A DNA stretch of 19,006 bases from an uncultured Chroococcidiopsis sp. Its GTDB lineage: Bacteria > Cyanobacteriota > Cyanobacteriia > Cyanobacteriales > Chroococcidiopsidaceae. The notes under the pieces are model-generated. The model made no database searches. It saw only the letters and a program-made list of their open reading frames with translations, and was not told where the DNA came from. This document shows positions 1 through 12,796 of this stretch, piece after piece; position 1 is the stretch's first letter, and each line of letters opens with the position of its first letter. The DNA is taken from the NCBI GenBank assembly GCA_964248365.1, contig CAXTYC010000058.1:1-19006 (forward strand), given 5' to 3'. Made by a program: the position numbers and the translations under genes.

Positions 1-81
1 TCATACGATTCAAAAGCTATTTTCATCACACCCTTTCCTCTTCCCCCTTTGCAAGTTTTTGTCCTGTACTAAGAAGCCTGA

Positions 82-136
82 CTTATTTTTTGTCGCCAAT
101 TCCAAGCTCTGTTTTTAGGACGGAAAATCCTGGGAA
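82..136 (+). repeat. Right half of the composite structured repeat; diverged direct repeat of 4332-4389
   Basis: CTTATTTTTTGTCGCCA (82-98) matches 4332-4348 at 16/17. TTTTTAGGACGGAAAATCCTGGGAA (112-136) matches 4365-4389 at 23/25. The partner left half would lie before the window. Confidence 0.85.
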
Positions 137-3836: not shown

Positions 3837-4389
3837 TGGGAATCCAATGTAACTCTAAAAAATGAGGGCGTGGGAGGCAAGGCTGGAAAAATATTGTCAG
3901 CTTTCTTTGGGAGATCTGTTGGCTCCAATGGCGTATTTGTTTTGTTATAGGGCTGACAATATTTTTTTGCGCCACTTCCAGACCTTGTATTCGAGTTGTT
4001 CGCAGCATGGGTGATCTATTTTGAAGGCAAGGGAGGCAAGGCTTGAAAAATAAGGACAGGCATCAGTGGTATTCGGTTGTGCATAACAGATTTACACTTG
4101 GCGCAAAAAAAATAAATCCAGCCGAGAGTTCTTTTTCTAAAAATAAAGCGGTCCTTGTTTTGAGGTTATCTGCTTGTCCCAACGCGGATCTATTATGAAG
4201 GCTGCCCTTATTTTTAGAGAGCCATTGGAAGCCTTCAAGGGGGAATATGGGTGGTGAACGAGAGATCTTTAATCAACGGCTGGATTTATTTTTTCAAGCC
4301 TTCCTTTAGTCTGTTTTGTATTAAGCAATTCCTTATTTTTTGTTGCCACGTTCTATGCCCTCATTTTTTAAGACGGAAAACCCTGGGAA
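3837..4389. repeat. Cluster of nested structured repeat elements (five inverted-repeat pairs with A-tract/T-tract cores)
   Basis: Perfect inverted pairs: 3856-3869/4357-4370 (14 bp), 3887-3901/3952-3966 (15 bp), 4046-4056/4330-4340 (11 bp), 4107-4124/4277-4294 (18 bp), 4136-4146/4208-4218 (11 bp). Direct repeats: 3872-3893/4031-4052 (21/22) and 4013-4028/4187-4202 (15/16). Confidence 0.9.
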
Positions 4390-5198: not shown

Positions 5199-5548
5199 TA
5201 CTACAAAAGTAGTATTTATATACAAATCAGGTAAATAATAATTAAAATTATGGCAAAAGGTTTGCATTTTAAGCAGTTCATCTGATTCCTTCGATTGCTG
5301 TGTCTCTAGTGAACAAATAGTATTTAAATTTAATGAGAATGTTTTTTACAACCAGTAAAAGCGATCGCCCTTATCACTAAGAACCGTCTGATAAAAACTA
5401 TTAGGGACTTCAATTTACCAAGTGCCAATCAAGCCAGGGAATCGATCAATACTTTGCTACTTGGAACTACTGCCAAAAATTTTTATTTGGTTTCCCGCAT
5501 TTTTTGGCTCAGTCAACTCACAACTTGCACTCTTTAGAAATCTCGGTT

Positions 5549-5626
5549 AAAATGAGGCTCGCCCTGAATGGGTACGTCTGTAGATCCTTATAGCGAGCTA
5601 TTTGTGTATAGGACGAGCCTTATTTT
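5549..5626. repeat. Structured element with A-tract arms
   Basis: AAAATGAGGCTCGCCCTG (5549-5566) is inverted to TAGGACGAGCCTTATTTT (5609-5626) at 15/18. It has the same AAAAT(G/A)AGG arm as the 3.8-4.4 kb cluster. Confidence 0.7.
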
Positions 5627-5671
5627 CGGATACGTCTATTCAACGGTTTTGGGAGTCTCTCAAGGAGAAAA

Positions 5672-6351: not shown

Positions 6352-9300
6352 ATGCAAATAAAAGATCGCAAATCGGGCAAACAGCAATTTCCTAAGATTA
6401 TTGATGCATTAACTACTGGGGTTGACATATTAGAAAAACCACCGCAGCGATTGCATTACTTCTTTGAACAACGCTGCGATCGCAATCCCAATGCTATTGC
6501 TTTAGTCTGTGAAAACGAGTATCTGAGCTACGCCCAGCTCGATGCACAAGCCAATCAGCTGGCTAACTACTTGGTAAGCCAAGGCATCAAACCTGGTAGC
6601 AAAGTCGGTATTTTGCTCGAACGCTCGGTTAACACCTATGTGGCGCTGCTGGGAGTACTCAAGTCCGGTGCTGCCTTTGTACCGCTTGATACATCCTTCC
6701 CCCAAGACCGCATTACTTACATTGCTTCTGATGCAGGACTCGACCTGCTAGTGACTAGGGCTAATTTGGACAGCCTGACTTCGAGGGTAAGCTGTCAAGT
6801 ACTGGCTCTCGACACTGCCTTAGCGATCGCCACCCAAAGTGCCGAGCGGATTGCACTGGGTGACAACTTAGACGCACTGGCTTACATTATTTATACTTCC
6901 GGTTCGACTGGGCGACCCAAGGGCGTGGCGGTCAATCATTCGAGTATCTGCAACTTCATCGCCGTGTGTACGCCCATCTACGGCGTAAGCAGCCGCGATC
7001 GCGTCTATCAAGGTATGACCATTGCCTTTGATTTCTCGATTGAGGAGATCTGGCCTACCTTCAAGGTTGGGGCAACTCTAATTGTTGGTCCCACCGACCA
7101 TAGACGACTTGGTGCGGGACTGACTGACTTCCTGGTCGAGCAGTCAATCACAGTTTTGTATTGCGTCCCAACCCTTCTAGCGACAGTCGAGCGGGATGTT
7201 CCGACAATACAAATCCTGCTCGTCGGCGGCGAAGCTTGTCCGCACGATTTGGTGAAGCGCTGGAGTAAGCCTGGTCGGCGGATTCTTAACACCTATGGTC
7301 CAACCGAAACAACTGTTAGTGCACTTTGGACTGAACTGGTGCCGGATAAACCAGTAACCATTGGCAGACCGCTACCAACTTACAGCGCCTACATTCTTGA
7401 CGAGGCGCGGTGTCAAGTGCCAAGCGGGGAAACTGGGGAAATTTGCATCAGCGGCATTGGCGTGGCGTGTGGCTACGTCAACCTCCCAGAACTCACTGCT
7501 ACTAAGTTCGTCCCCGATCCGTTTGCCCCCAACGGTGGCGTAATGTACCGAACGGGCGACCTTGGTCGAATCACGCCATCGGGGGAAATCGAATATCTAG
7601 GTCGCATCGATAGCCAGGTGAAGATACGCGGCTACCGGATCGAATTGAGCGAAATCGAAGCGGTGTTGATGGAAAGCCCAGAAGTTAACAACGCGGTCGT
7701 TTCGCTCGTATCCATAGATGAGGCGGTTGGGGAACTGGCAGCTTACATTACACTGAGCGTCCCCACTACCGATTCAGAGGAATTGAAGCAACAGCTGCAC
7801 GAAATATTACGCGATCGCCTGCCCAGCTACCAGGTGCCAGCGTACATCCAGATTCTGGATCGCTTTCCCATGATGCCTAGCGGCAAGGTAGACCGCTCTA
7901 AGCTTCCTGTACCTCAAAAACGGCTTTCTACGCGATCGGGTGCTGTTCTGCCGCCAAATACGCTGCTTGAGCGCTCACTAGCTGCCGCTTGGCAAGATGC
8001 GTTCAAGCGCGATGACATCTCGGCCGAGGACAATTTTTTCCGCGAACTCGGCGGTCATTCCCTACTTGCTGCAAGGGTTATTTCCCATCTCAGGGAGAAC
8101 CCGAACCTAAAGCACTTGTCCATTGCCGATCTCTACTCTTACCCCACTATCCGCACCCTAGCAAGTCACATTGAGCAAACCGCAACGCCAAATGAGTCGC
8201 CCCAGGTATTGGAAGCTCAGCCCAAACGCCGCATCCGACGCTACAGCAGCTTACGGGTGGGGGCGATGGGAGCTATGCAAGTGTTGTTGCTTTATTTCCT
8301 ATTCGCCATCGTTGGAGCGCCAATAGCTTGGATAATGTCAGAACTGAGAAGCTTGCCGCTGCTTACTCTGACATTGGTGAGCGTCACTCTCCTCCCAATC
8401 ACCTGGCTGCTGTTCTCTCTAGGATTGCCAATTGCCGCAAAATGGCTGCTCATCGGTCGGTTCCGTCCTGGTCGTTACCCGCTGTGGGGTTGGTATTATT
8501 GTCGCTGGTGGTTGGTACGTAAGATTTTGACCCTAGCACCGCTCCCCTACTTCGCTGGATCGCCGCTGATGCCCTTATATTTCCGGCTGCTGGGCGGACG
8601 TGCTAGTCAAGAATGTTACATCGGCAGCGCCCAGTTACACCTTCCCGATTTGATCGAAATTGGCGATGGAGCTAGTATCGGCTATGGTGTTGAAATACAA
8701 CCATTTCTGATTGAGGACGGCTGGCTGTATCAAGCCCCGATCCAGATCGGAGCCAACGCCTTCATCGGTACTAACTCAGTCATCGAACTGGGTGGTAAGG
8801 TAGGTTGGGGGGCGCGGTTGCTCGAACAGTCCCTCGTGGCACGCGACCAAGCGATTCCAGAGCGTGAAACTTGGGCTGGAGTGCCGTCTAAACGCACCGC
8901 CAACGCTGACGCAGTTCTGGACGCAATGGCGGAAAAAAAGACACCGAAATCAAGCTGGTCGCCCGCGCTTTGGGTGGGATTTGCGCTTGGATTTGTCCTG
9001 CTGGAGGCGCTGCCGTTTTTCATGTTCCTTCCTGGACTAGCATTGCTAGGGATCGATTATGTTGATTTCAATGACGATCTGCTTTGGGTACTCGCTGGTA
9101 CGCCCGTTGCGGGTTTGCTGTTCGTGCTGAGCGCCTGTATCCTGGTGGCAGTGGGTAAGTGGTTGGTGATGCCAACTTCCCGAACGGGCATTTTCCCTTT
9201 GCGATCGCGTTTTGGTCTGCGTAAGTGGCTGGTTGACAAGCTCATGCTGACTAGTTTGACAGTTACCAATACACTCTACGCTACCTTGTATACGCTGCCC

Positions 9301-10350
9301 TGGTTGCGTTTACTGGGAGCTAAAATCGGGGCGAGGTCGGAAGTCTCTACCGTATCGCACATCGACCCTGGACTGCTGAGATTGGGGACCGAAAGTTTTG
9401 TTGCCGACTTTGCGACGATTGGTGCGGCAAGATATGACAACTCTTTCGTGGCGCTGGGCGCTACATCGCTTGGCAACCGCTGCTTCATTGGTAATGCAGC
9501 CTTGGTTCCGAGCAATACGCAACTAGGCGACAATAGCCTAATTGGTGTGCATTCGGTGCCACCAAGGGAACCTGTTAAACCTGGTACTTCCTGGCTTGGT
9601 TCACCACCTATCTTTCTGCCGCGCCGCCAAATAAATACTAGCTTCGACGATAGCTTTACCTTCCGACCTCCAGCGAAGCTAGTTGCTTGCCGTCTAGGGA
9701 TGGAGTTTTTGCGGGTTGTGCTGCCACCCAGTCTCATGTACTTGATGATCGCCGGAGATCTTCTAGAGATGCTGTGGCTTGCTCCCAGACTTTCAACGGC
9801 AATGCTCGTAGCGATCGCGCCAATACTATACTTTATTTCCGCCCTGGTCGTGACTTTATTAGTTGTGGCGTTAAAATGGCTCGTGGTCGGGCGCTATCGT
9901 CCTCGGATTGAGCCGCTTTGGTCTTTCTTTGTCTGGCGTAGCGAACTGATTACTGGACTATACGAAAGTGTAGCAGTGCCGTTGTTGCTGACGTGGTTCA
10001 CTGGCACACCACTGCTACCCGTGATGTTGCGCTGGTTCGGTGTCCGAATCGGTCGGCGGGTCTATATAGAAACGACATTCGTGACTGAATTCGACTTGGT
10101 TCGCGTCGAGAACGATGCCGCTATTGGCATATTAACATCGCTTCAGACCCATTTGTTTGAAGACCGAGTGATGAAAATGTCGAGGGTAACTATCGGTCGG
10201 GGTTGTACCGTTGGAGCGCGATCGGTGGTGTTGTACGATTCGGTAATGGAGGCAGGATCTCGTCTTGATGCACTGTCGCTGGTGATGAAGGGCGAAAAGT
10301 TGCCGCCCAATAGCCACTGGCGAGGCATCCCAGCGCGTTTGGTTGAATAA
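6352..10350 (+). CDS. Pls/PosA-family single-module non-ribosomal peptide synthetase (A-T-membrane terminal domain), 1332 aa
   Basis: A-domain motifs YTSGSTGRPKG, FDFS, NTYGPTE, YRTGD, QVKIRGYRIELSEIE and PSGKVDR. T domain LGGHSL (Ser codon 8059-8061). No C or TE domain. The C-terminal half has three repeats of transmembrane helices plus KW..G.(F/Y)RP-type motifs and hexapeptide LbH stretches, as in epsilon-poly-L-lysine synthetase. Confidence 0.93.
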   Translation: MQIKDRKSGKQQFPKIIDALTTGVDILEKPPQRLHYFFEQRCDRNPNAIALVCENEYLSYAQLDAQANQLANYLVSQGIKPGSKVGILLERSVNTYVALLGVLKSGAAFVPLDTSFPQDRITYIASDAGLDLLVTRANLDSLTSRVSCQVLALDTALAIATQSAERIALGDNLDALAYIIYTSGSTGRPKGVAVNHSSICNFIAVCTPIYGVSSRDRVYQGMTIAFDFSIEEIWPTFKVGATLIVGPTDHRRLGAGLTDFLVEQSITVLYCVPTLLATVERDVPTIQILLVGGEACPHDLVKRWSKPGRRILNTYGPTETTVSALWTELVPDKPVTIGRPLPTYSAYILDEARCQVPSGETGEICISGIGVACGYVNLPELTATKFVPDPFAPNGGVMYRTGDLGRITPSGEIEYLGRIDSQVKIRGYRIELSEIEAVLMESPEVNNAVVSLVSIDEAVGELAAYITLSVPTTDSEELKQQLHEILRDRLPSYQVPAYIQILDRFPMMPSGKVDRSKLPVPQKRLSTRSGAVLPPNTLLERSLAAAWQDAFKRDDISAEDNFFRELGGHSLLAARVISHLRENPNLKHLSIADLYSYPTIRTLASHIEQTATPNESPQVLEAQPKRRIRRYSSLRVGAMGAMQVLLLYFLFAIVGAPIAWIMSELRSLPLLTLTLVSVTLLPITWLLFSLGLPIAAKWLLIGRFRPGRYPLWGWYYCRWWLVRKILTLAPLPYFAGSPLMPLYFRLLGGRASQECYIGSAQLHLPDLIEIGDGASIGYGVEIQPFLIEDGWLYQAPIQIGANAFIGTNSVIELGGKVGWGARLLEQSLVARDQAIPERETWAGVPSKRTANADAVLDAMAEKKTPKSSWSPALWVGFALGFVLLEALPFFMFLPGLALLGIDYVDFNDDLLWVLAGTPVAGLLFVLSACILVAVGKWLVMPTSRTGIFPLRSRFGLRKWLVDKLMLTSLTVTNTLYATLYTLPWLRLLGAKIGARSEVSTVSHIDPGLLRLGTESFVADFATIGAARYDNSFVALGATSLGNRCFIGNAALVPSNTQLGDNSLIGVHSVPPREPVKPGTSWLGSPPIFLPRRQINTSFDDSFTFRPPAKLVACRLGMEFLRVVLPPSLMYLMIAGDLLEMLWLAPRLSTAMLVAIAPILYFISALVVTLLVVALKWLVVGRYRPRIEPLWSFFVWRSELITGLYESVAVPLLLTWFTGTPLLPVMLRWFGVRIGRRVYIETTFVTEFDLVRVENDAAIGILTSLQTHLFEDRVMKMSRVTIGRGCTVGARSVVLYDSVMEAGSRLDALSLVMKGEKLPPNSHWRGIPARLVE

Positions 10351-11214: not shown

Positions 11215-12128
11215 GGTCGTGCAGGGCGCAAGCGTAGGACTGCTAGACTGAAGCATTGTGTAGTCGATCACTAGCAGAACAATGAAATGTCCCCTGTGCG
11301 GTCATGAAAAACCACATAAGCATGGCTTGACGAGTAAAGGGAGCCAACGCTACTTCTGTAGCAAATGTACACAAACCTTCACTGATACCTTTGATACGCT
11401 GTATTACCGACGGCAAGTGAGCGAGGAAGATGTGCGGATTGTACTGCAATCCCATGAGTCTCGGCAGCCGTTTACGAAGCATTAGTCGGATCAGCGGTTT
11501 AGCCTATGATACAGTTGTCAGCATCGTGCAAGCAGCGGCTCAGAAAGCGCAAATGGTACACAATAGCCAGGTAAAAAATGTCGATACAGATGCCATTGCA
11601 GCAGATGAGTTGTGGTCATTTGTAGAAAAAAACAAAAACACTGCTTACCCCAAGAGCTAGAAGCTGGAGATTGTTGGATAGCCGTAAGTTTGGCACAGCC
11701 CTTGTGGTCTGCTCCTATGTGGTCGTATAGGCAAGCATACCGACGAGTTAGCTCAGGAATTGGTAACTAGTACCCAAGGCAAGACTAGCTGTAAGGAATG
11801 GCACACCGATGGCTGGAGCGGATACTCGCTGTGCGCTTTGTAATGATGAGATAGAGCACTATATTAGCAAAACTTTGACACAACGTGTAGAGCCAACCAA
11901 CGGTATTGTGCGTCAACAGACTGGGCGCTGGCATCGACAACAAAATAAATTCAGCAAGTTATGGGGGCGTGCCTGAGCTAATTATGCGGTTAGTGGTAAG
12001 CTACTTCAACTGGATCTGGCGGCATTCCTGCTTAGGGACTATAGCGGCGTGGGCGTGCACAATTAACTCAAAGACCTTGGACTTGGAACGACATCGCTAC
12101 CTATCCCACGCTTTTGTATGGCACGACC
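11215..12128 (+). mobile_element. IS1-family insertion sequence, 914 bp, degenerate
   Basis: Terminal inverted repeats GGTCGTGCAGGGCGCAAGCGTAGGA and (reverse complement) GGTCGTGCCATACAAAAGCGTGGGA match at 18/25 and enclose an InsA/InsB-type coding region. No clean target-site duplication. Confidence 0.9.
11282..12120 (+). pseudogene. IS1-family transposase (InsA/InsB-type) with disabling frameshifts
   Basis: Zinc ribbon CPLC...CSKC, HTH SLRSISRISG, DELWSFV, A7C slippery site at 11626-11633, then TDGW and QRVEPTNGIVRQQTGRWHR. Extra frameshifts near 11460, 11700 and 11830. End coordinate approximate. Confidence 0.85.
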
Positions 12129-12226
12129 AAATACTTTCCAATCGGTTCAATGGGCAAATAGTCATCGCCTAGTACCATCCAGATCTGCTGATGGGAATCT
12201 GGGAGGAGTCCCTTTTGCACTTTCAT
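12129..12226 (-). pseudogene. 5' stump of a Tn554 TnpA-like tyrosine recombinase gene, truncated by the IS1
   Basis: GGAGAG then ATG at 12226 reads MKVQKGLLPDSHQQIWMVLGDDYLPIEPIGKYL, which I recognise as the N-terminus of cyanobacterial Tn554-type integrases (W.VL.DDYLPIEPI..YL). It ends at the IS1 right end. Confidence 0.75.
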
Positions 12227-12473: not shown

Positions 12474-12590
12474 CCCTGGGTTTTCCGTCTTAAAAAGTAG
12501 AGGCAACCCTGTTTTAAAGATCCCCACTATGTACGAGAAATACTGATGATGAGGGTTGCCTCTATTTTTTAGGGTTCCATCGGATTCCCA
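12474..12590 (-). repeat. Short (117 bp) copy of the structured element whose long nested form is 3837-4387, in opposite orientation
   Basis: The reverse complement of 12564-12590 matches 3837-3863 at 24/27. 12474-12496 matches the reverse complement of 4365-4387 at 22/23. Internal inverted repeat 12491-12510/12552-12571 at 19/20. Confidence 0.9.
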
Positions 12591-12796
12591 AGTTTTCAGG
12601 ACGTAAAAAATCTATGAAAACAGAGGCAATCCCCCGTGATTGGGAACCCTACACTGACCTGAGTGTGAGCGTGTAGGTAGTTCACAAGGCTACAACGACC
12701 CAATGGCATCACAGCTGCAACAGAAAATTGTCTCTCCTCCCCAGTGGTCAATACATAAAACGGCATATTCACACGAACTTGACTTTAAAAAGACAT

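Follow-up and report, generated by a model that had tools for sequence, protein, structure and literature searches.

A stretch of 19,006 nucleotides from an uncultured Chroococcidiopsis sp. (the window) holds, in a non-coding interval flanked by genes for an ABC permease and an NRPS-like protein, a cluster of inverted pairs lying one within another, which raises the question of what such a nest consists of. The preliminary description had hesitated between recombination sites recognised by their fold and tiny mobile elements that insert into each other. The second proposal is borne out by a recurrent doublet, empty sites, frame restoration and an excess of nesting and, with a probability of about 95%, the cluster is five copies of one ~110-bp non-coding mobile element, nested by successive insertion. 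The two neighbouring genes, of which the NRPS-like one (window 6352-10350) carries adenylation, carrier and hexapeptide-repeat domains, appear to have no relation to the cluster.

The nested cluster

The five pairs reported earlier are all perfect: 3856-3869/4357-4370 (14 nt), 3887-3901/3952-3966 (15), 4046-4056/4330-4340 (11) and, further in, 4107-4124/4277-4294 (18) and 4136-4146/4208-4218 (11). Nevertheless, two more perfect 13-nt pairs (3962-3974/4099-4111 and 4038-4050/4290-4302) cross the nest, because the members share end sequences. The nested reading is preferred because removal of the inserts leaves units of family length, 115 bp for E1, 109 bp for E3 and 106 bp for E4. The profile scores after this removal were 23.8 bits for E1 and 36.7 bits for E4; the peeled E3 gave no profile match at 5 bits. 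The 566-base cluster region folds with a z of −4.25, and none of 100 shuffles was as good. The members and the further copies in the window are the following, with subfamily names coined in this analysis.

3838..4386, + strand: E1, outer element, GG subfamily; own loop at about 3987-4024; 115 bp without E2 and E3
3872..3980, + strand: E2, GGGAGG subfamily; intact, 109 bp, 29 bits; inside the left arm of E1
4031..4355, + strand: E3, GGGAGG subfamily; in the right arm of E1, with E4 in its loop; ends ±2 bp
4091..4306, − strand: E4, AAGG subfamily; in the loop of E3; carries E5
4122..4233, − strand: E5, innermost, GG-core variant; at the conserved CC of the E4 arm; 55 bits
12474..12588 (start also 12476), − strand: further intact GG-subfamily copy; profile match
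5535..5640, + strand: further divergent copy, ends approximate; no profile match in the rescoring of peeled elements
72..133, + strand: a further nested pair, with a GGGAGG type within a GG type, of which only the right halves remain

E1 shows GG at both junctions and an 8-bp direct repeat (3835-3842/4382-4389). Its ends recur at a dozen other loci, and in a related strain its left end is kept at the same place with a different interior. The left half of E3 matches copies on contigs C1, C2 and C5 of the source genome (G000; C-numbers are its contigs). The 216-bp E4+E5 doublet (4091-4306) recurs at C85:90-305 with 99.5% identity and other flanks, and CC stands at both E5 junctions. Around the 12474 copy, decayed IS1-like sequence and, by eye, a likely group II intron fragment occupy window 11280-12170 and 12600-12790.

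Nesting was also counted across G000, where 20 of 120 cores are enclosed by another arm pair compared to 1-4 in five controls, two or three of the 20 looking like chance. Another core lies within 150 bp of 24 of the 120, compared to 3.4 expected (maximum 14). At C41:26849-35703, an 8.8-kb nest between one arm pair holds roughly twenty members together with pieces of IS1, IS5 and IS630.

Anatomy, covariation and distribution of the family

The family unit is non-coding, multicopy and 103-115 bp long, and is built in this order:

left outer end, 11-17 bp: differs from the right outer end
arm: A-tract, 6-9 variable bases and CC plus two; mirror arm on the far side of the loop
loop, ~41 bp, mostly 39-44 bp: conserved
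right outer end, 12-15 bp: differs from the left outer end

The arm length across the family is 16-22 bp. At least five subfamilies are distinguished by their outer ends (TA, GG, AAGG, GGGAGG and GAAT), and these ends are asymmetric, as noticed earlier. The inverted repeats are perfect sub-terminally only, and the tips are not inverted in most subfamilies. The terminal loop had been described as variable and is, on the contrary, the most conserved part across the family, with GATC in 76 of 114 loops compared to 12.5 in shuffled ones. An 8 x 1 unpaired bulge is present in one subfamily and not in others.

The core profile gave 107 matches in G000 and none in reversed G000, and iteration brought the number to 120 cores. 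In the same way, AAAAAT...ATTTTT pairs at most 600 bp apart with at least 8 complementary inner bases numbered 56, compared to 0, 0, 0 and 0 in four register-shifted controls. The mean column identity within the family is 48-56%, and for this reason repeat finders based on identity will miss it. G000 has 5556 HIP1 sites in 5.58 Mb, a density that marks it as cyanobacterial, and its low-HIP1 contigs (12% of the assembly) carry 42 of the 120 cores. Many copies lie inside ISs and group II intron genes, a frequency that may reflect tolerance instead of targeting.

Some members depart from this plan. The outer end is swapped for unrelated DNA of similar length in the copies at L238:739-775 and L202, hinting that flanking DNA can supply new ends. 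Insertions of ~20-35 bp, which we take to resemble very small cyanobacterial repeats, occur inside loops or arms at C29:41156, C50:21231, C3:271923, C7:7923 and C70:7511 of G000. Remnants with both outer ends and no stem-loop occur at C26:49116 and at C7:145570 and C40:5445, the latter within a tnpB reading frame. A two-tier model, with a core inserted into a small outer element, was dropped: just two such coreless remnants were found, one of them in two IS copies, and they are read as deletions.

The covariation of the inner stems proposed earlier was confirmed. In 44 aligned G000 cores, 96% of 702 cells are paired, with 173 two-sided compared to 9 one-sided changes, a result that none of 500 shuffles reached; 40 cores from eight genomes gave 95.8% paired and 210 two-sided changes. 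As the alignment seeds were chosen for paired arms, the paired percentage is inflated, and it is the ratio of two-sided to one-sided changes that carries information. Among 114 profile-found cores there are 94 different left arms, and 69 cores pair perfectly over 16 bases in the register chosen for best pairing. The mismatches in 1824 arm positions comprise 15 G-T, 19 A-C and 75 others, with no strand bias. G-T being no commoner than A-C, the arms point to DNA inverted repeats with no favoured strand. A structured non-coding or retroposed RNA, to which the strong hairpin and the covariation would also be suited, is therefore very improbable: besides the mismatch classes and the scarcity of one-sided changes, the loop folds no better than shuffled loops, Rfam holds no family at the gathering threshold, and there is one promoter-like site compared to 2.2 expected, with none inside the cluster.

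Further paired copies exist beyond the 120 cores of G000: nine other cyanobacterial genomes, spread over four families, have members, in a patchy distribution. A first model matched 4 of 24 same-family genomes (G005, 11; G014, 22; G033, 2; G003, 1) and none of 16 other genomes; in 150 genomes of the phylum it gave, among the candidates scored, one weak match, which was rejected. In 150 genomes of the order, matches among the candidates scored were found in G212, G188 and G273. A second model gave, among the candidates scored, at least 90 copies in G212, 6 in G230, 3 in G188, 1 in G020 and 4 in G273, the best 30-111 candidates per genome having been scored in the large searches. A match in G069 was a short hairpin without loop and was dropped. 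The paired matches that exact-pattern scans returned in genomes, and most of those in metagenomes, were duplicates of DNA already in the set; they are not counted as extra genomes. The copies of G212 have arms of 20-22 bp that start with a T-tract, so that the A-tract once ascribed to every arm is not general, and show a two-box loop and flipping as in G000.

Mobility, junctions and exchange between copies

The family is mobile. At least 11 nearly identical copies of a young TA subfamily are scattered over unrelated sites, filled and empty paralogues supply empty sites, and removal of the insertion restores the frames of IS1, ISAs1, IS630, integrase and reverse-transcriptase genes. The frame was restored with TA kept once at 2 loci, one by each analysis (homologous proteins and paralogue comparison), with GG kept once at 2 loci (against homologous proteins), and by removal of the element plus one base at 3 loci (1 AAGG, 2 GGGAGG); 54 elements were taken, most of which lie outside testable genes. 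On inspection, a TA copy in a hicA-like gene misses the TA rule by one base. In a related strain, an empty allele of the 12474-12588 copy joins 12475 to 12597 on a single contig of run X1, of depth 2.9 and aligned at 85% likeness.

The junctions differ by subfamily, being TA, GG, one base or 3 bp, with no target duplication of a single fixed length. The AAGG and GGGAGG types present a one-base, often unequal overlap. In all 13 AAGG copies (9 of 9 in the frame-restoration set) the fifth base past the right end is G; there is no left-side rule. TA targets have two bases in common and nothing more, and GG targets resemble the joined ends beyond the 2-bp core, over 8 bp at E1. Set beside the DNA around them, reconstructed empty sites show no better folding in G000 (−5.5 compared to −5.7, n=45) and only slightly better folding in G212 (−5.6 compared to −4.9, n=48), and general hairpin targeting is unsupported by these values.

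These junctions bear on two explanations which are both unlikely, and which are nevertheless close rivals of the Y1/HUH-type enzyme considered below. According to the first, the copies are ordinary MITEs that depend on DDE transposases, those of the TA types on an IS630/Tc1-like one, the other subfamilies having arisen by loop exchange and being moved by other transposases. The Correia/NEMIS, RUP and ERIC MITEs are alike in size, long terminal repeats, inversion and insertion into repeats (PMC3184786, PMC10969869): RUP and Correia share the TA duplication of one group of subfamilies and the 105-110 bp size (PMC3184786), inversion is described for Correia, and insertion of one repeat into another for the pneumococcal repeats (PMC10969869). 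Moreover, active ISs are collapsed out of the G000 assembly, and an IS end in G000 has the loop motif too. However, one family here combines TA, GG and one-base junctions, a fixed-length target duplication is found in the TA types alone, the GG and one-base types have no inverted repeats at the tip, and the target bias is one-sided. The arms vary from one copy to the next while keeping their pairing, and a transposase that reads sequence would not allow 94 different arms among 114 copies; the arms are absent from the repeated contig-end sequences listed, and no matching IS was found.

According to the second, a serine recombinase would excise a double-stranded circle, integrate it at any matching 2-bp core and also invert it, with the loop as accessory binding sites. 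IS607-type serine-recombinase elements have a matched 2-bp core at both junctions, and inversion is native to this class. The fixed TA and GG cores, the resemblance of GG targets to the joined ends and the unbiased arm mismatches are in agreement with it, as is the G212 loop, which holds two near-palindromic boxes 19-22 bp apart (81% compared to 29% of shuffles). The palindromic-box test fails in G000 (11.2 compared to 10.5), so the model holds in G212 only, and the AAGG and GGGAGG types have no matched 2-bp core. PF00239 has three matches in G000, none intact of IS607 size, and is also present in element-poor genomes.

The loop is found both ways round relative to the outer ends. Among the 114 G000 cores, end-matched pairs are flipped in 110 and parallel in 233 cases, and in G212 in 37 and 37. 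The loop orientation counts are 9 and 10 in GG, 13 and 4 in AAGG and GGGAGG together, and 12 and 3 in TA, 35 of 86 copies being without assignment. E5 and its sister copy at C7:143498 have loops 92% and ends 93% identical in opposite relative orientation. The inner-arm variants travel with the loop, which places the crossover in or beside the tract. Two left and two right arm types occur in each of the four possible combinations, as separate insertions; perfect arms are therefore unnecessary for each move. Similar loops with unrelated ends make up 31 of 295 close-loop pairs. We infer that flips and chimeras arise by recombination between copies and then arm-to-arm copying, for which template switching at imperfect palindromes provides a basis.

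The mobilising enzyme and the place of the family

A long autonomous version was found neither by the long-range arm scan nor by the orphan half-element search in G000, nor at its contig ends, nor in exact-pattern scans of genomes, metagenomes, viral contigs and a plasmid collection. A 1288-bp case from the arm scan is two chimeric copies and not an autonomous element. No enzyme gene or IS flanked by family ends was found in G000, whose assembly is fragmented and has masked stretches. A repeat of more than 250 bp, unannotated, is common to the starts of contigs C28, C67 and C95.

We tentatively favour, at somewhat less than even odds, mobilisation in trans by an enzyme of Y1/HUH type that cuts and joins single strands and whose gene lies elsewhere, because the variable one- or two-base junction sites and the one-sided target bias fit that chemistry best (PMC8266576). 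TnpA-REP cleaves between C and T or at CA, CC, GA or GT, like the subfamily-specific dinucleotide sites seen here (PMC8266576). The likeness of the loop to that of double-foot REPs, the adjacency to tnpA in G212 and the remnants lacking exactly the long stem-loop also count in its favour. Against it weigh the absence of arm strand bias, processing of IS200/IS605 and REPs being strand-specific (PMC8266576), the loop working either way round, the movement of copies with mismatched arms, the want of a guide and of an enzyme gene between family ends, the distribution of the subclass 2.4 enzyme, the folding of the empty sites and the loop motif in an IS. On inspection, no guide tetranucleotide covarying with the junction base was found, and the GT[AG]G tetranucleotide is absent from the hairpin foot.

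The preliminary description had matched the structure to no known class. This stands for Rfam, but REPs were dismissed too quickly. Double-foot REPs (PMC6006769) and REPINs (PMC3116915) are likewise non-autonomous and dispersed, with one long inverted-arm hairpin and a loop of ~36-41 nt. A loop signature is common to the family and to 45 GTAG candidates of G000, three or four of which look spurious: the loop profiles cross-score 4.4 compared to about −3.7, and 2.9 compared to about −8.8, for base-shuffled loops. This likeness may reflect a shared host-protein site, and the motif's presence also in the terminal repeat of an IS in G000 points the same way. The family differs from double-foot REPs in having no GTAG/CTAC feet, longer and hypervariable arms, asymmetric outer ends of 13-17 bp and no flanked transposase gene, and in interrupting genes and nesting. 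A separate 113-bp repeat is inserted into double-foot REP loops at C1:48853, C1:268177, C2:119229, C53:9434 and others of G000.

Double-foot REPs accompany the subclass 2.4 TnpA-REP, flanking and interrupting its gene (PMC6006769). Such a gene lies at C1:275684-276313 in G000, where the PF01797 genome search missed it, with double-foot REPs on its flanks and one inside in frame. As mobiliser this enzyme was rejected, since it is anti-correlated with the family: with its REPs it is abundant in G001 and G003 (0 and 1 family matches), while G014 and G033 yielded very few of either or none. The three RAYT genes and one fragment of G000 have other repeats and were rejected as well. In G212, a copy is located 68-192 bp past the tnpA gene, within the left-end region of IS605, at 4 of 14 loci (14 of 16 loci were taken, the first four fetched because the adjacency had been noticed); other copies lie in tnpB or between tnpA and tnpB. 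The IS110/IS1111 class, marked by a long target set by a guide and by a recombinase of its own, was set aside, as the TA targets have two common bases alone and G000 has one 99-aa fragment.

Folded single-strand sites like attC or those of CTX phage, recombined by a tyrosine recombinase, had also been proposed. The attC sites have a strand-specific fold, a conserved GTT/AAC crossover triplet and cassettes. The family shares with them a covarying, sequence-tolerant long stem with a bulged outer part, its single-point crossovers have no coupling sequences, and G003 and G014 contain plasmid-type integrase genes with a single copy immediately upstream. Nevertheless, the conserved and invertible loop, the lack of strand asymmetry, of a common triplet (by end inspection) and of cassette arrays, and the interruption of genes make this quite improbable. 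The expected neighbouring recombinase was not confirmed either: most integrase loci have no copy, several integrases are themselves disrupted by a copy, neither the plasmid-type nor the Tn554-like tyrosine recombinases are consistently linked, and a supposed 292-aa family was not one family. At C12:4601-8503 of G000, a Tn554-like trio (two tyrosine recombinases and a third gene) has its second recombinase interrupted by a family member. In G273, a telomere-resolvase-like gene (L326:5315-6286) shares a plasmid-like contig with two family members, and cas-like genes are near. A protelomerase was rejected as mobiliser, being beside two copies in G273 and not found in G000, G005, G014 and G033.

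With a Y1/HUH-type enzyme, the arms would fold the element into a hairpin on exposed single-stranded DNA, and the enzyme would cut on both sides of the loop, about 29-33 bases away from it, at one or two bases set by the subfamily (between T and A, between the two Gs, or at a looser site), the ends being joined. The element would then be joined into the same site elsewhere, with a fixed 1-2 bp overlap instead of a genuine target duplication. A common target would be the conserved CC at the inner arm end of other members, which would produce the nesting. Loop recombination between copies would leave mismatched arms, and arm-to-arm copying at the replication fork would restore them and flip the loop.

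Small repeated mobile DNA is also represented in cyanobacteria by MITEs and SDRs (Nezha, MaeMITE, the Anabaena 90 groups); SDR5, reportedly treated by Elhai in 2008, is small repeated DNA of this kind. From these, mostly 130-435 bp, the family differs in size, and Anabaena 90 group 1 (77-181 bp) may overlap with it; the Anabaena 90 MITEs too have no matching IS in the account of PMC3542288. No description of the family was found in searches of the published literature; some copies may be listed in automated MITE catalogues or in supplements. By defining features it is not assignable to MITE, REP, attC or IS110, and it works like a MITE/REPIN-type passenger.

The family is an abundant, recently active, gene-disrupting element, and several junction types in one family would surprise transposition specialists. 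To our knowledge, a mobilising enzyme has been proven for only a minority of bacterial miniature elements, and the spread of REP-like repeats is still debated. Here, many natural variants with known junctions, flips and chimeras make the rules of cut-site choice and of arm homogenisation testable. There is a small chance that this is an undescribed class of minimal mobile DNA, an element of ~110 bp that targets itself and whose enzyme recognises the loop and the complementarity of the arms instead of their sequence, taking the cut site from the tips. If so, one enzyme would serve the TA, GG and other subfamilies and invert the loop, flanking DNA taken up as new ends would give rise to new subfamilies, and the enzyme would be a naturally retargetable, near-scarless DNA inserter.
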